Shown here: piece by piece, positions 3-11,095 of the stretch
Layout: every line of letters begins with the position of its first letter
Position numbering within the stretch: position 1 is the first letter of the stretch
Assembly: GCA_020720945.1 (NCBI GenBank)
Contig: DYNR01000001.1
Coordinates: 4,268-30,852 of the forward strand
Length of the DNA stretch: 26,585 bases
DNA from: Chthoniobacter flavus
Lineage (GTDB): Bacteria; Verrucomicrobiota; Verrucomicrobiia; Chthoniobacterales; DYNR01
Reading direction: 5' to 3'
The notes under the pieces: model-generated
What the model was told of the DNA's origin: nothing
Seen by the model: only the letters and a program-made list of their open reading frames with translations
The model's database searches: none
Program-made: the position numbers and the translations under genes

Positions 3-275
<273 letters not shown>

Positions 276-369
276 GCTCACTGGATGCTCGCAATGCAGG
301 AAAGAGCAAGGCCAGAAAATTCAGCAAACGCCGCAAACAGTCACAATTACCACCCTGACCCCTATTCCT

Positions 370-2790
370 ATGGACCAATCCCAGCTCAACTGGCTCACCA
401 ATTTCATCTGGAACATCGCCGACGACTGCCTGCGCGATGTCTTTGTCCGGGGCAAATACCGCGATGTGATCCTGCCGATGACCGTCCTTCGCCGCCTCGA
501 TGCCGTGCTGGAGCCGACCAAGGCCGCCGTGCTCGAAATGAAGTCCGCGCTCGACAAGGAAAAAATCACGAATCAAGACGATGCCCTCCGCGCCGCCTCC
601 GGTCAGGCTTTTTACAATACCTCCCCCTTCCTCCTGCGCGATCTGAAATCCCGCAAAACCCAGCAAACGCTCAAAGACGACTTCATCGCCTACCTCGACG
701 GCTTCTCGCCAAATGTGCAGGACATCATCAAAAACTTCGAATTCCGCAACCAGATCGGCAAGCTCGTGGAGTCCGACGGCCTCGGCCAACTCATCGAAAA
801 GTTCCTCAGCAAGGACATCAACCTCAGCCCGCATCCCGTGGGCGAGTTGCCCGGTCTGGACAACCACAGCATGGGCACCGTCTTCGAGGACCTCGTTCGC
901 ATGTTCAATGAGGACAACAACGAGGAAGCCGGGCAGCACTGGACACCACGCGATGCCGTGAAGCTCATGGCGAGCCTCATGTTCCTCCCCGTGGCAGACA
1001 AGATCGAATCCGGCACCTACCTGCTTTACGACTGCGCCTGCGGCACCGGCGGAATGTTGACCGTTGCCGACGAAACACTCCAGCAAATCGCCACTGCGCA
1101 CGGGAAGCAGGTGTCCACTTACCTTTACGGGCAGGAAATCAATGCCGAGACCTACGCCATCTGCAAAGCCGACCTCCTCCTGAAAGGCGATGGCGAAGCG
1201 GCGGACAACATCATCGGAGGCCCCGCCTTCTCCACGCTGTCAAACGATGCCTTCCGCTCCCGCAGCTTCGACTTCATGCTCGCCAATCCGCCCTACGGCA
1301 AAAGCTGGAAGAGCGACCTGGAACGACTCAGCGGCGACGGCGGCAAAAAGGGCGTCAAAGACCCGCGCTTCGTCATCGAACACGCTGGCGACCCCGAGTT
1401 TTCCCTCATCACCCGCAGCAGTGATGGGCAGATGCTTTTCCTCGCCAACATGCTCAGCAAGATGAAGCATGACACGCCACTCGGCAGCCGCATCGCGGAG
1501 ATTCACAACGGCTCCTCCCTCTTCACCGGCGACGCCGGGCAGGGCGAGAGCAACATCCGCCGCTGGGTCATCGAAAACGACTGGCTGGAAGCCATCGTCG
1601 CCCTGCCCCTGAATATGTTCTACAACACCGGCATCGCCACCTACATCTGGGTGCTCACAAACCGGAAAGCGGAACACCGCAAAGGCAAAGTCCAGCTCAT
1701 CGACGCCACCAACTGGTTCCGCCCCCTGCGCAAAAACATGGGCAAAAAAAACTGCGAACTCGCCCCCGAAGACATCCAGCGCATCTGCGATACCTTCCTC
1801 GCCTTCGAGGAAACGCCACAGTCGAAAATCTTCCCCAATGCCGCCTTCGGTTATTGGAAAGTAAAAGTCGAACGCCCGCTCCGCCTCCACAGCCAGCTCA
1901 CCCGCCCGCACATCGAAACCCTGCGCTTCACCTCGGGCGATGAAGACATCCGCGCCGCCCTCTATGCCGAGCTAGGCGAGGCCGTTTTTGAGAAATGGGC
2001 CGCCACGCTCCCCGCTTTGGAAAAACTCTTGTCCGATTGGTCGGATCCGTCCGAACCGACTGATCCCTCCGAAGACGAAGAGGTAGCACCCAAGAAAACC
2101 CTCTCCGACAAAAAGAAAAAGAAGCTCCTCAGCGAAGCCACTTGGCGGCGCGATGCCATGCTGCTCGATACCGCCCACCAACTCCGCAAAGCTCTCGGCG
2201 AAGACCTCTTCACCGACCACAATGTCTTTCTGGAAAAAGTCGAAGCCACGCTGAAAAAGCTCAACCTCAAACCCAGCGCCTCCGACCTCAAAACCATCAT
2301 CGCCGCCGTCAGTTGGCGCGTCGAGGACGCCCCGCCCGTCATCAAAAAAATCCACAAGCCGGGCAAAACCAAAGCCGACCCACTACACGGCCTCTACGAA
2401 ATGAATCCTTGCAATAAAAGCGCTTCACGGGTAGCGGGCATGGACACAGATCCCAATCCCATCTGCGAAAATCTGCGAAATCTGCGGATAAAAAATCCGG
2501 GGGCCGTAGTCGAGTTTGAACCCGACCCCGAACTCCGCGACTACGAGCAAATCCCCCTGCTGGAGGAGGGCGGCATCGAAGCCTTCCTCCGCCGCGAAGT
2601 CCTGCCCTACACGCCCGATGCCTGGATCGTCGAGTCCGACACCAAGATCGGCTACGAAGTCAGCTTCACCCGCCACTTCTACCAACCGCGCCAGCTCCGC
2701 ACCCTCGCCCAGATCAGCGCCGACATCCTCGCCTTGGAGCAGGAGACCGAAGGCCTGCTCCACGAAATCACGAAAGGAGCCAGCGCGTGA
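370..2790 (+). CDS. hsdM: Type I R-M N6-adenine methyltransferase subunit M (806 aa)
   Basis: Likely start is ATG 370 (MDQSQLNWLTNFIWNIADD), not 37. SAM motif YDCACGTGGML, catalytic ANPPYG, and YGQEIN, DGQMLFL and LPLNMFYNTGIATYIW segments. Confidence 0.95.
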   Translation: MDQSQLNWLTNFIWNIADDCLRDVFVRGKYRDVILPMTVLRRLDAVLEPTKAAVLEMKSALDKEKITNQDDALRAASGQAFYNTSPFLLRDLKSRKTQQTLKDDFIAYLDGFSPNVQDIIKNFEFRNQIGKLVESDGLGQLIEKFLSKDINLSPHPVGELPGLDNHSMGTVFEDLVRMFNEDNNEEAGQHWTPRDAVKLMASLMFLPVADKIESGTYLLYDCACGTGGMLTVADETLQQIATAHGKQVSTYLYGQEINAETYAICKADLLLKGDGEAADNIIGGPAFSTLSNDAFRSRSFDFMLANPPYGKSWKSDLERLSGDGGKKGVKDPRFVIEHAGDPEFSLITRSSDGQMLFLANMLSKMKHDTPLGSRIAEIHNGSSLFTGDAGQGESNIRRWVIENDWLEAIVALPLNMFYNTGIATYIWVLTNRKAEHRKGKVQLIDATNWFRPLRKNMGKKNCELAPEDIQRICDTFLAFEETPQSKIFPNAAFGYWKVKVERPLRLHSQLTRPHIETLRFTSGDEDIRAALYAELGEAVFEKWAATLPALEKLLSDWSDPSEPTDPSEDEEVAPKKTLSDKKKKKLLSEATWRRDAMLLDTAHQLRKALGEDLFTDHNVFLEKVEATLKKLNLKPSASDLKTIIAAVSWRVEDAPPVIKKIHKPGKTKADPLHGLYEMNPCNKSASRVAGMDTDPNPICENLRNLRIKNPGAVVEFEPDPELRDYEQIPLLEEGGIEAFLRREVLPYTPDAWIVESDTKIGYEVSFTRHFYQPRQLRTLAQISADILALEQETEGLLHEITKGASA
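2444..2489. repeat. ATCTGCG-triplet element (full right arm plus short left-arm remnant) in frame inside hsdM
   Basis: ACACAGAT (2444-2451), a 9-nt spacer, then ATCTGCGAAA-ATCTGCGAA-ATCTGCGGAT (2461-2489). Same 10+9+10 layout as the arm in hsdS. Confidence 0.8.
2761..2790 (+). repeat. Direct repeat copy 1 (hsdM 3' end, with Shine-Dalgarno and GTGA overlap)
   Basis: CACGAAATCACGAAAGGAGCCAGCGCGTGA, 25/30 identical to 3998-4027. Confidence 0.75.
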
Positions 2791-3908
2791 AAAAGAAGAA
2801 GCCCAAAATAGTGTCACCAGCGGTGACACAAATAGTCTCACCATTGGCGAGACAATTGCCAAAGGCAGCAATGGCTCCTGCCTTCACCGAAGTGCTCCAG
2901 CTGATTCAAGCCGCCAAACAAAGGGCGTATCAGGCCGTCAACACCGAGCTTGTTACGCTTTATTGGCAGGTCGGCGAATACATCAGTCGCAAGCTGGAAT
3001 CCTCCGAGTGGGGTGATAAAGTGGTGAACGATCTTGCCAGATACCTCGCGCGAACTCAGCCTGGGCTGATAGGTTTCACCCGCCGAAACCTGTTCCGAAT
3101 GCGCCAGTTTTATGATGCCTACCGCAACACTGAAATTGTGTCAGCAGTGCTGACACAATTGCCGTGGACCCATCACCTCATGATCATTGGAAGTTGCAAG
3201 CGCCCGGAGGAACGCGAGTTCTACATCCGCATGGCAACCAGTGAAGGGTGGCGCAGCAGAGAACTCCAGAGACAAATCCGATGCTGCCTGTTCGAGCGTG
3301 CCGTCATGAATCCGCCAAAAGTCGCAGCAGCACTGCGACAATTGCAGCCAGAGGTCACCAACATCTTCAAAGACATTTACACCCTCGAATTCCTCGGCCT
3401 CCCCGCCGACCACTCGGAGGCCGATCTGCACGGCGCACTGCTGCGCAATCTGGGCCGCTTCATCACCGAACTGGGGCGGGACTTCTGCTTTGTCGGCTCC
3501 CAATACCCGGTGCAGGTCGGCGGGCAAGACTTCGCTCTCGACCTGTTGTTTTTTCACCGCACCATGAACTGCCTCGTCGCCATCGAACTGAAGATTCGCG
3601 AGTTCCGCCCGGAGGATCTCGGCAAGCTCAACTTCTACCTCGAAGCCCTCGACCGCGACTACCGCAAGCCCCACGAAAACCCCTCCGTCGGCCTCCTCCT
3701 CTGCGCCACCAAAGATACCGAAGTCGTCGAGTATTGCCTCAGCCGCAGCCTCTCCCTGGCCATGATCGCCGAGTATGAAACCCTGCTGCCGGACAAGGAA
3801 CTACTGAAGGCCAAGCTGCACGAGTTCTACCAACTCTGCGCCCCACCGGAGGATGATATGGCAGAGCCAAAGCCATCAAAGCCCGCTCGAAGGAGGGAAA
3901 AGCCATGA
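2787..3908 (+). CDS. DUF1016/YhcG family PD-(D/E)XK nuclease-domain protein (373 aa)
   Basis: Motifs YQAVNTELVTLYWQVG, GFTRRNLFRMRQFY, LPWTHH, FKDIYTLEFLGL, DLLFFHR..VAIELK, LGKLNFYL and ENPSVGLLLC. GTG start overlaps the hsdM stop, with GAAAGGAG upstream. Confidence 0.92.
   Translation: MKKKKPKIVSPAVTQIVSPLARQLPKAAMAPAFTEVLQLIQAAKQRAYQAVNTELVTLYWQVGEYISRKLESSEWGDKVVNDLARYLARTQPGLIGFTRRNLFRMRQFYDAYRNTEIVSAVLTQLPWTHHLMIIGSCKRPEEREFYIRMATSEGWRSRELQRQIRCCLFERAVMNPPKVAAALRQLQPEVTNIFKDIYTLEFLGLPADHSEADLHGALLRNLGRFITELGRDFCFVGSQYPVQVGGQDFALDLLFFHRTMNCLVAIELKIREFRPEDLGKLNFYLEALDRDYRKPHENPSVGLLLCATKDTEVVEYCLSRSLSLAMIAEYETLLPDKELLKAKLHEFYQLCAPPEDDMAEPKPSKPARRREKP
2807..2857. repeat. Two tandem hairpins (24-nt period) in the 5' end of the DUF1016 gene
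   Basis: GTGTCACC-AGC-GGTGACAC and GTCTCACC-ATT-GGCGAGAC, encoding IVSPAVTQ and IVSPLARQL. Confidence 0.85.
3134..3160. repeat. Perfect 13-bp inverted repeat inside the DUF1016 gene
   Basis: AATTGTGTCAGCA-G-TGCTGACACAATT, encoding IVSAVLTQL just before PWTHH. Confidence 0.95.
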
Positions 3909-4027
3909 TCCACCGAATTGTTGACTCAGTGCGTCTAAATTCGATTTGGAACGCAGTGCGTGCCAAATTGAATCGGCGATGGCCCTCAGAAGCCTCGCAC
4001 GACATCATGAAAGGAGCCACGGCATGA
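3905..4027 (+). CDS. 40-aa bridging ORF, not in the supplied track (MIHRIVDSVRLNSIWNAVRAKLNRRWPSEASHDIMKGATA)
   Basis: AGGAGG at 3891-3896. ATGA overlaps with both the DUF1016 stop and the hsdS start. It contains two hairpin units, and its C-terminus resembles the HsdM C-terminus. Confidence 0.5.
   Translation: MIHRIVDSVRLNSIWNAVRAKLNRRWPSEASHDIMKGATA
3916..3969. repeat. Two tandem 27-nt hairpin units downstream of the DUF1016 gene
   Basis: 3943-3969 is GATTTGGAACGCA-G-TGCGTGCCAAATT (11/13 paired plus one G.T). 3916-3942 is a degenerate copy (about 8/13). Confidence 0.7.
3998..4027 (+). repeat. Direct repeat copy 2 (directly before and overlapping the hsdS start)
   Basis: CACGACATCATGAAAGGAGCCACGGCATGA, 25/30 identical to 2761-2790. 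Confidence 0.75.
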
Positions 4028-5502
4028 TCGAGGGACTTAAACCCTATGCGGAATACAAGGAGTCGGGCTCGAAGTGGCTAGGTGCTGTTCCAGCGAAATG
4101 GGAAGTGCGGAATCTCCGCACGCTGATCTCAAAGCGAGCCGAGCGAGACCGTCCCGACCTTCCGCTGCTTTCGGTGGCACGGGAGAAAGGCGTCTTCGTT
4201 CGCTCAATGACCGATGCGGACGAGAACCACAATGTTATCCCCGAGGACTTGACCAACTACAAGGTCGCCCGCGCTGGCAATCTCGTGATCAACAAGATGA
4301 AGGCGTGGCAGGGATCAATGGGCATTGCGCCTTGCGATGGTATTGTCAGCCCAGCGTATTTCGTCTTCGACTTCCGCATCGGCAATCACGGGTTCGGCCA
4401 GCGTCTCCTTCGCAGCAAACCGTATGTAGCACATTTTGCGCAGGCATCGGACGGTGTGCGAGTCGGTCAGTGGGATTTGTCCATTCCCGGAATGCGGCAG
4501 ATTCCCGTGCTCGTGCCCAGCGACGACGAACAAGCGGCGATCGTGCGGTTTCTGGATCATGCGAACCGGAAGATTGACGGATTCATCCGTGCCAAGCGGA
4601 AGCTGATTGGTTTGCTGAACGAGCAGAAGCAGGCCATCATCCACCGTGCCGTCACCCGTGGAGTGGATCATCCACAGATTTCGCAGATTTCCGCAGATGA
4701 AAACCAAAAAAATCTGCGCCCATCTGCGCAATCTGCGGATAACAACCTCAAACCTTCCGGCATCCCTTGGCTCGGCGACATCCCGAAGCATTGGGAGACT
4801 ATTACAGTGGGAGCGGCAACCTCCATGATTCAGACGGGGCCATTCGGAAGTCAGATTCACTCGAATGAGTATATCCGTGGAGGCACGCCGATCATCAATC
4901 CGTCGCATATGAAGGATGGCTCTATCGTAGCCGACATGGATGTCGCTGTTGGCGAAAGCAAGCTGCGAGAGCTTGCTCGGCATCGGATGTTGGTTGGCGA
5001 TATTGTCGTGGCGAGACGGGGAGAACTTGGTCGATGCGCTTTAGTTACCCAAAATGAAGAGGGATGGCTATGCGGCACAGGCAGTTTGCTTGTTCGGATT
5101 AAGCGCGATGTCTTTAATCCCGGTTATTTCCAGGAGGTGTTCTCTTCGTCAGGCGTGTGTGATTTACTTAGTTTGGCATCAGTTGGCTCGACGATGGACA
5201 ATCTCAATGCGGGCATGGTCGGTCGGTTAAGGTTTCCACTTCCGAGTGTTGAGGAGCAGACAGAGATACTAAAGTTTATTGGTGTTGAGAGGTCGAAAAA
5301 CACCGCCGCCATCGCCCGCACGGAGCGAGAAATCGCGCTGATGCAGGAATACCGGACGCGCCTGACGGCGGATGTAGTGACGGGCAAGCTGGATGTGCGC
5401 GAAGCCGCCGCCCAGCTCCCCGCCCTCGCCCCCGATTCCACCCCCGAACCCGCCAGCGAGGATTTGCCGGAAGAAACTGAACCCGAGGAGGATATGGAAT
5501 GA
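4024..5502 (+). CDS. hsdS: Type I R-M specificity subunit S (492 aa, two target recognition domains, TRDs)
   Basis: Start ATG 4024 after GAAAGGAG. Repeated conserved segments KESGSKWLGAVPAKWE and KPSGIPWLGDIPKHWE, plus P..DEQAAIVRFLD and LPSVEEQ..I. Ends with ADVVTGKLDVR. Confidence 0.93.
   Translation: MIEGLKPYAEYKESGSKWLGAVPAKWEVRNLRTLISKRAERDRPDLPLLSVAREKGVFVRSMTDADENHNVIPEDLTNYKVARAGNLVINKMKAWQGSMGIAPCDGIVSPAYFVFDFRIGNHGFGQRLLRSKPYVAHFAQASDGVRVGQWDLSIPGMRQIPVLVPSDDEQAAIVRFLDHANRKIDGFIRAKRKLIGLLNEQKQAIIHRAVTRGVDHPQISQISADENQKNLRPSAQSADNNLKPSGIPWLGDIPKHWETITVGAATSMIQTGPFGSQIHSNEYIRGGTPIINPSHMKDGSIVADMDVAVGESKLRELARHRMLVGDIVVARRGELGRCALVTQNEEGWLCGTGSLLVRIKRDVFNPGYFQEVFSSSGVCDLLSLASVGSTMDNLNAGMVGRLRFPLPSVEEQTEILKFIGVERSKNTAAIARTEREIALMQEYRTRLTADVVTGKLDVREAAAQLPALAPDSTPEPASEDLPEETEPEEDME
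4670..4740. repeat. 71-nt imperfect palindrome in frame inside hsdS
   Basis: 29-nt arms at 4670-4698 and 4712-4740 (24/29 complementary) with a 13-nt A-rich loop. Each arm is three ATCTGCG-like units. Confidence 0.9.
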
Positions 5503-6281
5503 TGCTCGAACTCCTCATAGCCACCCGGTTTGAAAAGGTGATGGGCTCTGGTCGCACCCAGCCTTGCCTGCTGGTGTGTGAAAACGAGGCAGGCGAAGAG
5601 GTCGAGGTGGTGGCCAAACTGCGCGGCCATCCGCAGATCATGCCGGGCGGCTTGCTGGCTGAGGCCGTGTCGTCTTTGCTCGCGCTTGATCTCGATCTGC
5701 CCGTGCAGACACCGTATCGAGTTGAGATTGAGAAGGCGTTTGCCGATGCGTTGCCGGACGCCGCCTTGCGGACAGTCATCCAGAAAAGCGAGGGGCTGAA
5801 CTTTGGCTCTGCAAAGTGGGCACCCGGCTACACGATCTGGCCGAGGGACAAAACGCCGTCGCGGGATATGAAGCAGAGCCTAACGGAGATTTTCGCCTTT
5901 GACGGGTTGATTCAAAATCCCGACCGTCGTCAAGCCAATCCGAACTGTGCTTTTCTTGGCACCGACCTCCGGATTTTCGACCACGAGTCCGCTTTTTCGC
6001 ACTTTATGTCCATCCTGCCGGTTGCTCCTTGGGATACAGGCGGGCTGGCTTTTCTAAAGGACCACATTTTTTTTCAATCACTTCGCGGCGGGAATCTTGC
6101 GCTGGATCGATTTCAGGGAGCACTGGAAGCCGTGGACGAATCCCGGCTGGACGCGTATATTGAAGCTGTTCCGAAGGAATGGAATGGTCAAACAACCACG
6201 GGGCCAAAGATCAAAACGCATCTGATGGAGTGCATCGCCAATTTTCAACACATTCGATTACAAATGGAGACACTGTTATGA
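5499..6281 (+). CDS. HipA-like / PI3K-PI4K-fold protein kinase (260 aa)
   Basis: Gly-rich MGSGRTQP, VVAK lysine, LLAE glutamate, catalytic loop NPDRRQANPN and IFDHESAF. ATGA overlaps at both ends. Confidence 0.8.
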   Translation: MMLELLIATRFEKVMGSGRTQPCLLVCENEAGEEVEVVAKLRGHPQIMPGGLLAEAVSSLLALDLDLPVQTPYRVEIEKAFADALPDAALRTVIQKSEGLNFGSAKWAPGYTIWPRDKTPSRDMKQSLTEIFAFDGLIQNPDRRQANPNCAFLGTDLRIFDHESAFSHFMSILPVAPWDTGGLAFLKDHIFFQSLRGGNLALDRFQGALEAVDESRLDAYIEAVPKEWNGQTTTGPKIKTHLMECIANFQHIRLQMETLL

Positions 6282-7135
6282 AAAAACATCCCTACACCTA
6301 CACCATCCTCCGCTATGTGCATGACACGAGCACGGGGGAATTTGCCAATGTGGGCATCGTTCTCTCTTCCCCGGAGGCTCACTACGCGACCGCCATTCTG
6401 TGCCCGAAATACACACGCCTCTCGAAGATGTTTCCGGGCTTCGATGGAGAGCATTTCCGCACGGTAATTCGTCACCTCCAATTGCGCCTCGATGAGATTG
6501 CCTGTTGCGTGCAACAGGAGCTGGAGCTGGGACAGAAGCCCGTGAATGCCCAAGAGATGGCATTCGCGGTGATTGCTCCCGACGATAGTTCTTTCCAGTG
6601 GTCGCCGATGGGAAGCGGAATAGCTACCGATCTAGCCGCCACGGCGGAGTCCATCTACGAGCGCATGGTCGAACGGTATGACGATCCAAAGAAGAATTTC
6701 AGTCGCTCCGACGAGGCCGTGTGGAAGACCTTCAAGAAGGGCTTTGAGGAGAAGCAGATTCTCTCGCGTTTCGGGACGAAGATTATTGCGGTGAAAGACG
6801 ACGAGGTTGAGTTCAGCCACGCATGGCAGAACCAGCAATGGCACTGCATGGAAACCTTGTCCTTCGATCTGATGCAGCCGCAGAGCATCAAAGATAAGGC
6901 TCACTCGTGGCTTGGCCGGATGACCAGCGTGAAGGATTCGCCGGACAAGTTCCGGGTCTATTTCCTCGTGGGAGAGCCGCAACTTGAAGGGAGCAAACGC
7001 GCCTTCGAGCAAGCCCTCAATGTGCTTCACAAAACACCCGTCGAACATGAGATCGTTCGCGAGAATGAAGCAGAGCACTTCGCGGAAGAGGTGGCAAAAA
7101 AAATTGCGGCGCATGACAAACAACTCGGAAAATAA
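6278..7135 (+). CDS. DUF3037-like protein (285 aa)
   Basis: N-terminal YTYTILRYVHDTSTGEFANVGIVL signature. Start ATG 6278 overlaps the kinase stop. Confidence 0.75.
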   Translation: MKKHPYTYTILRYVHDTSTGEFANVGIVLSSPEAHYATAILCPKYTRLSKMFPGFDGEHFRTVIRHLQLRLDEIACCVQQELELGQKPVNAQEMAFAVIAPDDSSFQWSPMGSGIATDLAATAESIYERMVERYDDPKKNFSRSDEAVWKTFKKGFEEKQILSRFGTKIIAVKDDEVEFSHAWQNQQWHCMETLSFDLMQPQSIKDKAHSWLGRMTSVKDSPDKFRVYFLVGEPQLEGSKRAFEQALNVLHKTPVEHEIVRENEAEHFAEEVAKKIAAHDKQLGK

Positions 7136-7153
7136 ACTAAACTAATAAAAAAT

Positions 7154-8699
7154 ATGCCATCCGACACCAGCGAAAAAGGACTCGAAACCCTGATCATGCG
7201 CCACCTGACCGGGACGGATGGCTTGGTTTCTGACCCAGCGGGAGTCGTCGCCGAGGATGCGCCCGCCAAGGCTGGAAGTCGTTGGTTCGCGGGAAGCCCC
7301 CAAAGTTATGACCGCGAGTTTGCGGTGGATACGGCGCAACTCTTCGCCTTTCTCATGACGACCCAACCGGAGGAATGGGCGAAGTTGGGCATCGCAAATT
7401 ACAAAGACGAGCACGGTATGGCGCGGCAGAAGTTCCTCGCCCGATTGCAGGGGGAAATCACGCGGCGGGGAACGATTGATGTGTTGCGCAAAGGCATCAA
7501 ACACGGGCCGTTGAGCTTCGACCTTTTCTATGGCACGCCGTCGCCGGAGAATGCGAAGGCGGTGGAGCGACACGCGAAAAACCGTTTCAGCATCACGCGG
7601 CAACTCCATTTCAGTCGGGAAAACAAACGCTCGCTGGACTTGTGCGCCTTCATCAACGGACTGCCGCTCATCACCTTTGAACTAAAGAACAGCTTGACCA
7701 AGCAGACGGTCGAGGATGCCATCGAGCAATACAAACGGGACCGCGATCCCCGCGAGACGCTGTTCGCATTTGGCCGCTGTGTCGTTCACTTCGCAGTGGA
7801 CGACCACGAAGTGGCAATGTGCACCGCCCTCAAAGGCAAGGGCGGCACGGCGAAGGACTCATGGTTTCTCCCGTTTAACCAAGGCTGGAACGACGGGGCG
7901 GGCAATCCTCAGCAACGAGACCGACCCAAATAAACTCCACACGCTCAAGGGCGATCTGGACAAGGTGCAGGTTTATTCTCCCGAGCAAATCGACGCGCTG
8001 GTTGAGCTGTATCTTGGAGGAGCCGACCGCGATAAACTCGACCCGATCCTCGACGCCTGCGTGGCTGTTTACATTAACGACCTCGACGAAGACGGGCAGG
8101 TGGATTTCAAAGGGAAAGCGAAGGCATTTACCCGCACCTATGACTTCCTCGCCACGATCCTGCCTTATGGCATCCAAGACTGGGAAAAACTCTCGATCTT
8201 CCTGAACTTCCTCATCCCCAAGCTACCCGCACCGAAGGAGGAAGACCTCGCCAAAGGCATCCTCGAAGCCATTGATATGGACAGCTACCGCGCCGAAAAA
8301 AAAGCGACGATGGCAATCGCGCTGCCTGATGAACCTGGCGTGATTGACCCGGTTCCCGTGTCAGGCGGAGGTCGCAAGCCGGAGCCAGAAATGGACAAAC
8401 TCTCGAACATCGTGAACGAGTTTAACCAGCATTACGCGGGCGGCTACGCGGACCCCGAACGAACGCTCGGACGGATCCACGGCGAGATCCCACAAAAGGT
8501 TTCCGAAGATCAGGCTTACAAAAACGCCAAGCAGAACTCGGACCGGCAGAACGCGAAAATCGAGCATGACAAGGCACTCAAACGAGTAATCACTGCGATG
8601 TTCAAGGACGATGCCCAACTCTTCAAGCAGTTTCAGGACAACGAATCCTTCCGCCATTGGCTGACGGAAACGGTTTTTGGCATGACCTACGAGGAGTAG
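7154..8699 (+). pseudogene. hsdR: Type I R-M restriction subunit R, internally deleted and frameshifted
   Basis: The N-part has SEKGLE, RFSITRQLHFS, DLCAFINGLPLITFELKN and FLPFNQGWNDGAGNP. At about 7905 it jumps to a C-terminal HsdR segment in another frame (ILSNETDPNKLH...FKQFQDNESFRHWL). No Walker A, DEAH or helicase motifs lie between them. Confidence 0.88.
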
Positions 8700-8729
8700 G
8701 AACTAATTTTTGCATAGCGAGTCGATAAC

Positions 8730-8761
8730 AGACGGATTATTAAAAAGTTATCCGTTTTTTC
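8730..8761 (+). terminator. Possible weak intrinsic terminator after hsdR
   Basis: ACGGAT...ATCCGT stem with an AT-rich interior, followed by a T6 run. Confidence 0.4.
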
Positions 8762-8880
8762 TCCACCCCATTTTGTGCGATCTTGGAGCCTGCGAGCAGG
8801 CGCAAAAATTTCTCGAATTGCTTCTCCCTATTGCCAAGAAAAATTTTTTCGGCTAATACACCTCCCTCCTTTTGCCACCA

Positions 8881-9822
8881 ATGAAACACTTTATCCAATT
8901 TGCACCGCTCCCGATGGAACGGGTTTGGGGGGGGCGCGAACTTGCCTCCTTGTTCGGAAAAAAATTGCCAGATGGGGTTCCCGTCGGCGAATCTTGGGAA
9001 ATCGTTGACCGCCCAGAAGCACAAAGCGTCGTCTGCTGCGGCGAATGGGAAGGCAAATCGCTCAACGACCTTTGGAAAAACCACAGGCAAGAAGTGTTTG
9101 GAACGGCCTACGCCAACCACCCTTCGGAACGCTTCCCAGTTTTGGTCAAACTGCTGGACGCAAGGGAAACGCTCTCTGTCCAAGTCCACCCGCCCGCGCA
9201 CCGTGCCGAAGCGCTCCGCGGCGAACCTAAAACGGAAATGTGGTATTTCCTGCGTGCCGATGAAGGGGCGTGCATTTATGCGGGTGTCCAAAATGGCGTG
9301 GATCGCGCGGAGTTTGAACGCCTCCTCGAAAAAGGTGGCGTAGAAAACGCCCTGATCCGCCTACCCGTCAAACCGGGCGAAAGCATTTTCATCCCCAGCG
9401 GCAGACTCCACGCCATCGGTGCCGGAACCGTCATCGCCGAAATCCAACAAAACAGCGACACCACCTACCGCGTGTTTGACTGGAACCGCCTGGGACTGGA
9501 CGGCAAACCGCGGGATTTGCATGTCCAAGAATCACTGGAATCCATTGATTTCGAGGATCATGCACCATCCCTGCAACCCGCCGAACAACCCTTGCTCGCC
9601 GATTGCCCTTACTTCCGCGTAGAAAAGAAAACCCTCTCGGGAAAAAGCTCGCTATCCCTCGGAGAAAAATTCCTTTTGTGGTGCGTAGCTTCCGGCAAAC
9701 TGATCATCGGAGAAGAAGAAATCCCGCCGGGCCATTTCCTCCTTTTGCCCGCAGGAAACTCGTTCGCCATCGATTGCGATAATTGCGAAATTTTAGAAAT
9801 CTCGCTGCCGGCGCAAGGCTGA
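8881..9822 (+). CDS. manA: Type I mannose-6-phosphate isomerase
   Basis: WGG, GESWE, VKLLDARETLSVQVHP, KTEMWY, HAIGAG and EIQQNSDTTYRVFDWNR. ATG 8881 preferred over TTG 8872. Confidence 0.9.
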   Translation: MKHFIQFAPLPMERVWGGRELASLFGKKLPDGVPVGESWEIVDRPEAQSVVCCGEWEGKSLNDLWKNHRQEVFGTAYANHPSERFPVLVKLLDARETLSVQVHPPAHRAEALRGEPKTEMWYFLRADEGACIYAGVQNGVDRAEFERLLEKGGVENALIRLPVKPGESIFIPSGRLHAIGAGTVIAEIQQNSDTTYRVFDWNRLGLDGKPRDLHVQESLESIDFEDHAPSLQPAEQPLLADCPYFRVEKKTLSGKSSLSLGEKFLLWCVASGKLIIGEEEIPPGHFLLLPAGNSFAIDCDNCEILEISLPAQG

Positions 9823-9829
9823 TTTTTTT

Positions 9830-11095
9830 ATGAAAGTAATGGTCGTCGGTAGCGGCGGACGCGAGCAAGCCTTGGCTTGGAAAATCTCTCGCTCTCCGAA
9901 GGTTGAAAAAGTCTTTTGCGTTCCCGGCAACGGGGGCACTCGTCCCCCGGCAGAAAATGTCCCCATCGGCGCTCTGGAAATCGAAAAACTCCGGGACTGG
10001 GCACTGGCAGAAAAAATTGGCCTGGTCGTCATCGGCCCGGACGACGCGCTGGCCCTCGGTGCAGCCGATGTTTTTTCTTCTGCCGGTATCCCGTGCTTCG
10101 GCCCCAAAAAAAATGCCGCCCGCCTGGAGTCATCGAAATCTTTTGCGAAGGATTTCATGCTGCGCCACGGCATCCCTTGCGCGAAGTCCCGTGTTTTCAC
10201 CGACAGCGACGAGGCGCGGGATTACCTTTTGCAGGCGAAGTATCCGCTCGTGGTCAAAGCGGACGGCCTAGCTCTCGGCAAAGGGGTCGTCATCGCGGAA
10301 ACGCCGGAGGAAGCACTCGCCGCGACCGGGAGGATGATGGACGCCAAGGAATTCGGCTCCGCAGGGGAAACCGTTGTCATTGAAGAGTTTTTGCGAGGAA
10401 CCGAATGTTCGATCCACGCCTTTATCGACGGCTCCAGCCACTTGCTTTGCCCTGACGCAAAAGACCACAAACGGGTCGGAGAGGGAGATGAAGGCCCGAA
10501 CACGGGTGGCATGGGCACCATTTCTCCTTCGGGCGCGGTGGACGAAACAATGCTCGCCCGCATCCGCGAAGAAGTCCTCGACCGTTTTGTTTGCGGCCTA
10601 AAAAAAGACGGGCTGGATTACCGCGGGATGCTTTTTCCAGGACTGATGATCACGGAAAACGGCCCCGTGGTTTTGGAGTTCAACTGCCGCTTCGGCGACC
10701 CGGAAACGCAAGTGCTCCTGCGCCGCCTCGAAAGCGACTTGGTGGAAATTTTGCTCGCGACCTGCGAAGGCCGCCTCTCCGAAATCTCCCCGACTTGGAG
10801 TAAAAATGCGGCCGCCTGCATCGTGATGGCATCCGCCGGTTACCCCGGGTCTTACGAAAAAAGCTTGCCGATTGAAGGGATTGACCTCGCGGAAGCTTCT
10901 GGGGACACCGTGGTTTTCCACGCCGGCACCGCATGGAAAAACGGGGAACTTGTCACCAATGGCGGACGCGTCCTCGGCGTCACGGCGACGGGCGAAACCT
11001 TGGAAGACGCGAGACGCAAAGCTTACGCCGCCGTCAACGAAATCCACTTCGACGGATGCTTTTGCCGCAGAGACATCGGCGGAGGAATCCTGTGA
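9830..11095 (+). CDS. purD: Phosphoribosylamine-glycine ligase
   Basis: GSGGRE, PGNGG, LESSKSFAKDFM, VVKADGLALGKGV, GPNTGGMG, EFNCRFGDPETQ and TNGGRVL. Confidence 0.97.
   Translation: MKVMVVGSGGREQALAWKISRSPKVEKVFCVPGNGGTRPPAENVPIGALEIEKLRDWALAEKIGLVVIGPDDALALGAADVFSSAGIPCFGPKKNAARLESSKSFAKDFMLRHGIPCAKSRVFTDSDEARDYLLQAKYPLVVKADGLALGKGVVIAETPEEALAATGRMMDAKEFGSAGETVVIEEFLRGTECSIHAFIDGSSHLLCPDAKDHKRVGEGDEGPNTGGMGTISPSGAVDETMLARIREEVLDRFVCGLKKDGLDYRGMLFPGLMITENGPVVLEFNCRFGDPETQVLLRRLESDLVEILLATCEGRLSEISPTWSKNAAACIVMASAGYPGSYEKSLPIEGIDLAEASGDTVVFHAGTAWKNGELVTNGGRVLGVTATGETLEDARRKAYAAVNEIHFDGCFCRRDIGGGIL

Follow-up and report, generated by a model that had tools for sequence, protein, structure and literature searches.

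A hairpin-forming coding palindrome at a conserved position of DUF1016/YhcG nuclease genes

Palindromic elements of Rickettsia, about 100-150 bp long, invade many unrelated genes of one genus in frame, and the origin of phage phiX174 lies inside gene A, where a DNA-cleaving enzyme has its cis site within its own coding sequence. Both recall the subject of this study, a short hairpin-forming palindrome at a conserved coding position of DUF1016/YhcG nuclease genes, analysed here from a 26,585-nucleotide stretch of Chthoniobacter flavus DNA (Verrucomicrobiota; assembly GCA_020720945.1, contig DYNR01000001.1, positions 4,268 to 30,852 of the forward strand), hereafter the window. Like the Rickettsia elements, it is palindromic DNA read in frame in apparently permissive parts of a protein, but the former are not bound to one gene family or position. 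Gene A differs in that it encodes an HUH nickase acting at a sequence-specific origin, and no replication role is indicated for the DUF1016 palindrome. The nearest described phenomenon is that of the coding palindromes of hairworm mitochondria (PMC6649704), which are likewise perfect in-frame inverted repeats in functional genes, protein and stem being preserved together. Yet hairworm palindromes are spread over many genes of a single organelle genome, are up to 284 bp long and are restricted to their lineage, without a family-specific conserved position, whereas the DUF1016 palindrome measures 25-31 bp and occupies one position of one family across bacterial and archaeal phyla, with covarying stems. 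The descriptive class "coding palindrome" (PMC6649704) combines an in-frame perfect repeat in a conserved gene, which was found here, with a spread over many genes, which was not.

Hairpins or repeats that accompany a particular gene are also known from other systems. REP/RAYT systems (repetitive extragenic palindromes with an associated tyrosine transposase, also REPtron or REPIN) display short, structure-conserved hairpins clustered at a nuclease/transposase gene, sometimes as doublets on both sides. REPs are, however, intergenic, dispersed in tens to hundreds of copies and linked to an HUH Y1 transposase, whereas DUF1016 units occur only at the locus of their own gene, mostly inside the open reading frame (ORF), and accompany a PD-(D/E)XK nuclease. 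Likewise, integron attC sites are structure-conserved, sequence-variable DNA hairpins that are read as folded single strands, but they are 57-141 nt long and imperfect, with extrahelical bases and RYYYAAC/GTTRRRY cores, and lie 3' of cassettes next to an integrase. DUF1016 palindromes are 25-31 nt long and mostly perfect, the ends of the units read AWTTGT ... ACAAWT, and no integron integrase adjoined the gene in the Pfam scan of the window, which covered the ORFs at 37-11095. Type III toxin-antitoxin systems (ToxIN-like) display tandem short repeats 5' of a nuclease gene, and a cis-encoded nucleic-acid partner is conceivable here as well. ToxI repeats, processed by an endoribonuclease, are nevertheless non-coding and direct and fold into pseudoknots, contrary to DUF1016 units, which are translated (as part of a conserved tail), palindromic and poor in wobble pairs, and which do not belong to this type. 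The searchable literature on DUF1016, YhcG, COG4804, PDC-S02 and coding palindromes contained no description of the element; publications naming DUF1016, YhcG, COG4804 or PDC-S02 are confined to the protein and its surroundings. Within the limits of that literature, the DUF1016 coding palindrome is apparently undescribed.

The source assembly (2.69 Mb, 529 contigs) contains, besides the DUF1016 gene of the window, three further paralogs whose products are 27-36% identical to the window protein. All four genes displayed a perfect 13-bp hairpin ahead of the (S/P)W(T/S)H motif, and the four stems were all different (GTGTCAGCA, GTGCAGGCA, GGTCACAC and AAGCTCATCA). A hairpin at this main site was also found in most DUF1016 loci of related genomes. 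For a broader survey, 80 loci from a wide range of phyla, bacterial as well as archaeal, were fetched and aligned by profile, each gene being anchored on the motif's Trp codon. Of 90 non-redundant loci, drawn with a five-sequence alignment and hence biased to one subfamily, 86 displayed, in the 200 nt leading up to the Trp codon, a hairpin with 9 or more pairs, against 2-9 of 90 in equal-sized control windows; 80 hairpins fell into a single 60-nt bin, with roughly two per bin elsewhere. Because of the subfamily bias, a second, independent sample of 29 loci was defined across the phylum by the Pfam profile alone. At least 9 pairs were present at the expected site in 22 of them, six of the other seven displayed a shorter stem and one looks to have lost the element. 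The placement of the internal copy just before (S/P)WTH, proposed in the initial annotation of the window from its sequence, therefore holds for the family at large (86/90 and 22/29 loci). The main unit, which almost all members of the family have, ends 3 nt before the Trp codon of the (L/I)(P/S)W(x)H motif, and the palindrome (25-31 bp) is built of an A/T-rich foot (AWTT...AAWT), a variable stem of 8-11 bp and a centre of 1-5 nt. DUF1016 matches were recorded in 63 of the 201 genomes sampled in the phylum, with at most six profile matches in any one genome (a split match counting as two), and in 525 plasmid records. Among homologs on named plasmids, those of Curtobacterium, Legionella pneumophila and Citrobacter displayed the main palindrome clearly, those of Rhodococcus and Methylibium more weakly. 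A DNA search for E. coli yhcG with a Pseudomonas homolog gave no match. One locus pair (L004 / L015, on G009:C10; L, C and G designate loci, contigs and genomes of our collection) consists of tandem DUF1016 genes from different subfamilies, each with its own hairpin or hairpins.

Pairing at this site is kept at the nucleic-acid level, beyond coding needs. In a fixed-register alignment of 87 distinct sequences, 85.4% of the pairing cells were paired, against 70.7% after shuffling of the 3' partners (0 of 500 shuffles reached the observed value) and 21-39% when partners were slid. Changes on both sides were recorded in 135 cells, where 47.7 were expected, and 11 of the 12 pairs showed compensatory changes. 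Several pairing classes were observed: Val GTG goes with Ala GCA and Val GTC with Gly GGA, so that a silent base covaries with an amino-acid change, while a Gly-Gln ... Ala-Asp class displays GGTCAG/CTGACC, a Glu ... Leu class CAAG/CTTG, and the window a Ser-Ala ... Leu-Thr arrangement. When synonymous codons were resampled on each gene's own peptide, 5.5 of 12 Watson-Crick pairs were expected and 9.4 were observed, 60% of the genes being individually at p <= 0.005. Expectations for codon choice were taken from codon use in the rest of the same genes. Gln at codon 8 was encoded by CAA in 63/63 cases (26 expected), Ala at codon 7 by GCA in 47/50 (8 expected), Gly at codon 7 by GGA in 17/17 (2 expected), Phe at codon 1 by TTT in 37/37 (17.5 expected) and Ile at codon 1 by ATT in 31/37 (11 expected). 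Codon 6 ended in T in 69 of 73 genes, and the codon preceding the unit in A in 62 of 64. Same-peptide resampling and these codon-choice tables rule out chance or a protein motif as the cause of pairing. The innermost pair (positions 12 and 14) was not conserved, and the structure is therefore a physically reasonable stem of 10-11 bp with a loop of 3-5 nt. A constraint at the nucleic-acid level and not from the protein, as suggested at the outset, is thus borne out by the covariation and by silent positions nearly fixed on their Watson-Crick partner; the covariation and silent-site checks on orthologs were both significant, and the element recurs in orthologs and paralogs.

The palindrome is both family-wide and family-specific. 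The 2.69-Mb genome contains 25 perfect hairpins with a stem of at least 11 bp, four of them in the four DUF1016 genes; about six such hairpins fall in long ORFs, these four included, and, of the remaining two, one is located at the end of a contig. The unit-frame pattern, sought in the complete genome, had no copies outside the four DUF1016 loci. Taken together, the pattern and perfect-hairpin scans of the whole genome rule out a genome-wide REP-like repeat. In a covariance-model search of 41 related genomes, every match with E < 1e-4 was located inside a DUF1016 gene; one convincing orphan (L120) was found, and the other inspected non-DUF1016 matches were chance-like or weak. L120 (G036:C3, about 263.87 kb) is an intergenic unit of the IVQRPVAQL type with a perfect 12-bp stem and no DUF1016 gene nearby, and a half unit lies directly upstream of it. 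Of five matches to the exact pattern in viral contigs, one was a clear DUF1016 gene and one a probable variant of the family; the other three, among them one between two phage tRNA genes, were judged compatible with chance for a 10-nt arm. A 23-nt palindrome identical to that of many DUF1016 genes lies between tRNA-Trp and tRNA-Gly of a phage tRNA array (L106:5042-5064) and is probably due to chance.

The selected object is probably DNA, in the form of a single-stranded hairpin or a cruciform, and not messenger RNA (mRNA). This reading rests on the pattern of substitutions, since neither sense nor antisense G·U was tolerated. Codons that would give a G·U pair on the sense strand (CAG, GCG and GGG), silent at three codon positions, were seen twice against about 55 expected, and those that would give it on the antisense strand (ATC, TTC, GTC, GCC and CTC) three times against about 63. 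Inside stems, mismatches of type G·T (13) did not exceed those of type A·C (20). Watson-Crick pairing that is strict on both strands fits a DNA hairpin or cruciform, and also arm-to-arm copying; a selected RNA stem does not usually leave this signature. The Rfam covariance models gave no match at E <= 1 in window 2600-4200, which rules out a known RNA family for that region.

In the window itself, six in-frame 27-nt hairpin units were found on the + strand, all in one codon phase and with the palindrome centre at the first base of a codon. The initial annotation had listed five, centred at 2820, 2844, 3147, 3929 and 3956; all of these are real, with the 27-nt frame and codon phase it gave, and a sixth one (3318-3344) had been missed. 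A repeat search placed units 1-3 in one group with this sixth unit. Units 1 and 2 had been taken to lie upstream of the gene and are in fact inside its N-terminal tail, while units 4 and 5 are indeed downstream, in a 40-codon ORF at 3905-4027. The main palindrome, unit 3 (IVSAVLTQL, 3135-3161), displays a perfect 12-bp stem (3134-3145 / 3149-3160) with a folding energy of -16.7 kcal/mol (z -4.8, all z-scores being relative to dinucleotide shuffles) and ends 3 nt ahead of the LPWTH Trp codon (3165). In the tail, unit 1 (IVSPAVTQI, 2808-2834) has its stem at 2811-2818 / 2822-2829 with loop AGC (-12.6 kcal/mol, z -6.4), and unit 2 (IVSPLARQL, 2832-2858) a stem GTCTC.CC / GG.GAGAC (-8.9 kcal/mol, z -3.0). 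Unit 6 (KVAAALRQL, 3318-3344), in the interdomain linker, pairs GTCGCAG with CTGCGAC (3321-3327 / 3333-3339) around loop CAGCA (-12.3 kcal/mol, z -2.4). Unit 4 (IVDSVRLNS, 3917-3943) is degenerate and weak (-7.3 kcal/mol, z -2.1) while keeping the common codon phase, and unit 5 (IWNAVRAKL, 3944-3970; inverted repeat I7) pairs at 11 of 12 positions, with a stem extended to 3939-3973 (-16.3 kcal/mol, z -4.7). When the whole 26.6-kb window was scanned for the unit frame (A/T at the base and no fewer than 7 of 10 positions paired), 20 matches were obtained against 8.0 +/- 3.1 in shuffles, and seven of the 20 fell within the 1.2 kb of 2808-3970, a local enrichment. A 9-bp hairpin at 2862-2884 (AAGGCAGCA-atggc-TCCTGCCTT), in a codon phase unlike that of the family units, encloses the internal in-frame ATG 2871 with AAGG and could occlude an alternative start.

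The protein contexts of these copies were examined on an AlphaFold2 (AF2) model of the window protein (mean predicted local distance difference test score 74). The nine-residue segment of unit 3 lies between two helices and consists of a loop and a short helix, and unit 6 falls in a low-confidence interdomain stretch, so that unit copies all appear, on this model, to occupy permissive parts of the protein. A sequence search for solved structures of the DUF1016 family returned none.

Some other loci carry extra or flanking copies as well. Further copies were found in about one locus in five (21 matches, against 7 for a reversed-unit control). They are mostly tandem copies in an inserted stretch that directly precedes the main site, often with a 39-nt period, and the Pfam profile is often split at positions 83-92 because of these inserted tandem units. 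Where the ancestral site no longer pairs (L006, L007, L016, L005, C17, C128, L067 and others), the hairpin is carried by a unit of the upstream insertion. Copies in the N-terminal tail or upstream of the gene were recorded in the window and in L027, L031, L082, L062, L076 and L085, and a copy just past the stop codon in L099. The upstream copy of L062 (1301-1329) is also predicted as an intrinsic terminator for the gene that precedes it (stem, then GCCGCTTTTT). Two loci contained partial DUF1016 genes. L085 (200-420) holds a 35-codon fragment of another DUF1016 allele between the end of hsdM and the full DUF1016 gene; the fragment is centred on the hairpin of its own allele, which has a different stem. 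Plasmid5 of Calothrix brevissima (L112, 1477-1709) contains a DUF1016 pseudogene that is missing from the annotation; of its two family-type units, which are separated by 200 nt, the first is joined directly to residue ~30 of the domain.

The clade of the window protein was represented by 120 homologs of 64-100% identity in a protein search. Many of them begin with MKKK... and then have a single unit or a pair, for example IVSPAVTQ-IVAPPARQL-P, and the tail MKKKKPK-IVSPAVTQ-IVSPLARQL-P... is conserved in homologs of 65-89% identity. Because of this conservation, the upstream GTG is taken as the true start of the DUF1016 gene, with units 1 and 2 as coding. At the DNA level, the tail, main and linker units of five clade homolog loci paired at 7-10 of 10 positions with differing stems (GTCTC, GTCGC, CTCTCA). 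Tail homologs of unit 1 displayed 8/10 pairs in L114 and L118, and those of unit 2, in L114, L116, L118 and L119, 7-9/10 pairs with different stems (GTCGC, CTCGC, CTCTCA). The linker unit (+165 nt from the Trp codon) was kept in L004 (G009), L107 (a Methylibium plasmid), L114, L116 and L118, and sequences at the main and linker positions were position-specific across clade orthologs. Units 4 and 5 and the 40-codon ORF were absent from homolog loci L114-L119, for which reason this ORF is considered lineage-specific. In the clade homolog loci the next gene directly follows the DUF1016 stop, with an overlap in L114-L116, and the 40-codon ORF looks like a lineage-specific bridge keeping translational coupling to hsdS.

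The setting of the DUF1016 region in the window is a Type I restriction-modification operon on the + strand, in which adjacent genes overlap by GTGA or ATGA. It opens with hsdM (37-2790), encoding a Type I methyltransferase of 917 aa (Pfam HsdM_N and N6_Mtase; PADLOC MTase_I), the stop of which shares GTGA with the DUF1016 start. The DUF1016/YhcG gene (2787-3908; 373 aa from GTG 2787) encodes a DUF1016_N domain (PF17761, 1.2e-44, 152.2 bits for a cut-off of 32.8) followed by a YhcG_C PD-(D/E)XK nuclease domain (PF06250, 3.1e-53, 180.2 bits for a cut-off of 32.5), and its product also matched the PADLOC profile of candidate defence gene PDC-S02 (E 1.3e-130). The bridging ORF with units 4 and 5 (3905-4027), called as a gene in a second assembly, is joined by ATGA overlaps to the DUF1016 stop and to the start of hsdS (4024-5502), the specificity subunit gene (Pfam Methylase_S; PADLOC Specificity_I 2.6e-93). 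Its C-end is a relic of the hsdM C-terminus (HDIMKGATA). The DUF1016 gene and the small ORF are bracketed by the copies of a 30-nt direct repeat (family D2, 83% identity), of which the left one (2761-2790) comprises the hsdM 3' end with ribosome-binding site and overlapping start, and the right one (3998-4027), given by the repeat search, the present junction to hsdS. In L114-L119 about 40 nt of the hsdM 3' end precede the DUF1016 gene irrespective of the identity of the upstream gene, and a relic hsdS start follows the DUF1016 stop codon in L114 and L115. Between hsdS and the remnant of hsdR lie a HipA-like kinase gene and a DUF3037 gene (5499-7135; PADLOC candidate PDC-M66A/B). The hsdR gene is apparently broken (7154-8699), with only an HSDR_N fragment recognisable (7154-7933), followed by an overlapping ORF without Pfam match; the operon may now encode just the methylase and specificity subunits.

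Judging from the sequence comparisons, we consider that the units stand about an even chance of being copies of a DNA palindrome that acts in cis and is tied to the encoded Cas4/RecB-like nuclease. Since the element is tied to one gene family, it would serve in cis as a structure-specific site for binding, control or cleavage by the encoded PD-(D/E)XK nuclease, possibly in nuclease autoregulation or self-recognition. That the encoded protein itself reads the hairpin structure is a more tentative proposal, which we hold to be rather doubtful; in a Foldseek search with the AF2 nuclease domain, the best matches were Cas4, MGME1 and AdnA, which are nucleases acting on single-stranded DNA or DNA ends. 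The clade of the window has gained in-frame copies at permissive places, of which two are in the N-terminal tail and one is in the interdomain linker, and the lineage of the window has two more in the small ORF bridging translation to hsdS. Extra copies would arise through local in-frame duplication, and template switching between arms during replication would help to keep all copies perfect; such switching probably contributes to the identity of the arms under any reading.

Several observations weigh against this cis-acting site. The Foldseek matches were weak (template-modelling scores of 0.2-0.36) and concerned the C-terminal domain only. A variable stem is hard to square with sequence-specific recognition, and any reader of the structure must therefore be shape-specific. 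A target within its own gene would be hazardous for a nuclease. Strict Watson-Crick pairing could also reflect selection for maximal RNA stability, and arm-to-arm copying by template switching could produce it without any function (PMC8794818). In tests by others, one PDC-S02 representative gave no protection against T4, T5 or T7 (bioRxiv 10.1101/2024.09.26.614923). Finally, unit position 25 (first base of the ninth codon) was always A or T in 76 genes, and Leu at the ninth codon was encoded by TTR in 51 of 51 cases, CTN being expected about 40 times, even where the partner of position 25 is T. This is beyond what pairing alone accounts for.

Two other explanations leave the palindrome in place and change what is selected. 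It might act as a stem-loop of the mRNA that, in cis, slows or gates translation or sets transcript stability, a potentially toxic nuclease being kept low and strictly coupled to translation of the upstream gene. The in-ORF units all share the coding strand of a single operon whose stop and start codons overlap, the tail units are 20-70 nt past the start codon, the hairpin around ATG 2871 encloses an internal start with AAGG, and the RNA stems are stable (-9 to -17 kcal/mol). We nevertheless consider this explanation unlikely, given the avoidance of G·U at silent sites, the mismatch counts and the empty Rfam scan reported above, loops of 1-3 nt without RNA-type loop motif, and perfect copies outside genes in L062, L076, L099 and L120. 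Slightly less probable still is a functionless, self-perpetuating palindrome, in which a chance ancestor was kept perfect because template switching copies one arm from the other at a higher rate than point mutations build up, protein selection on one arm sets the silent sites of the other, and extra copies are slippage duplicates. Template switching is documented to make and maintain perfect stems and to yield one-step compensatory changes (PMC8794818), it predicts strict Watson-Crick pairing on both strands, as observed, copies outside genes remain perfect, and the hairworm mitochondrial palindromes (PMC6649704) are an example of coding palindromes to which no function is ascribed. An unspecific mutational process would, however, be expected to mark many gene families, whereas DUF1016 holds four of the about six long-ORF hairpins of the genome; ~95% or more of the lineages, from different phyla, still have the element, decayed old sites were replaced by a new upstream unit, and A or T is demanded at an unpaired position of the stem foot.

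The remaining explanations treat the units as parts to be moved, as had been suggested in the initial annotation. Recombination or mobility sites (attC-, REP- or IS200-like) moving the gene or parts of it are improbable in our view, even though copies flank the gene body in the window, L062, L076 and L099 have copies upstream or downstream of the gene, unit-centred gene fragments occur in L085 and L112, L120 is an orphan without gene, and the DUF1016 family is often found on plasmids and integrative elements (PMC4316617). The genome displayed no dispersed copies, attC core sites and extrahelical bases were lacking, no integrase or HUH transposase occurred among the Pfam-scanned neighbours, and most loci have the internal copy only. 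Likewise, no excess of mosaicism was observed: distances of the N- and C-terminal parts correlated as well across the hairpin (0.65) as within the C-terminal part (0.64), which also rules out a recombination hot-spot at the hairpin. Nor do the hairpins act as cassette boundaries in the clade, where cassette ends correspond to the shared hsdM 3' end with its overlapping start and stop codons. Some rearrangement centred on hairpins may nevertheless have occurred, given the fragments of L085 and L112 and the orphan units of L120 and L076. Of that suggestion of mobility or recognition sites, the hairpin as a recognition site in general stays the best reading. Least probable, and hardly credible, is a mini diversification system in which the flanking units are stored donor cassettes that convert the nine-residue segment. 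Several similar units do occur at one locus in one codon phase, with some within-gene likeness (two units of the C515 paralog identical at 25/27 positions; main and linker units of L004 at 18/23). In three of five close gene pairs, however, the unit was better conserved than the sequence on either side. Sequences of the main and linker units remain specific to their position from one ortholog to the next, a donor copy is missing from about 80% of loci, and no reverse transcriptase or recombinase was found among the scanned ORFs up to 11095. Two independent assemblies of the locus, which differ at 2 of 3845 nt, are identical in all units. A hypervariable cassette thus gains no support from the close gene pairs or the second assembly.

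A palindrome acting in cis as a DNA site, the reading preferred here, would bear on one of the commonest uncharacterised nuclease families, which is routinely found inside restriction-modification and defence loci. That a single coding position holds a palindrome across phyla, at the cost of codon choice and nine residues, amounts to a strong constraint. It offers a concrete handle on what DUF1016 proteins may recognise, namely hairpin or cruciform DNA. In a wider and distinctly speculative view, a whole family of widespread nucleases from defence islands might carry its own DNA hairpin or cruciform within the coding sequence as an obligatory cis partner, read by shape and used for auto-control, self/non-self discrimination or triggering, with paralog-specific stems preventing cross-talk. 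The palindrome is furthermore a clean natural case of dual coding for protein and DNA structure, as well as a test bed for the respective shares of template switching and selection in keeping stems perfect. It accounts for the split Pfam matches and the odd repeated peptides of the DUF1016 family, and silent recoding of DUF1016 genes for expression is perhaps not neutral.

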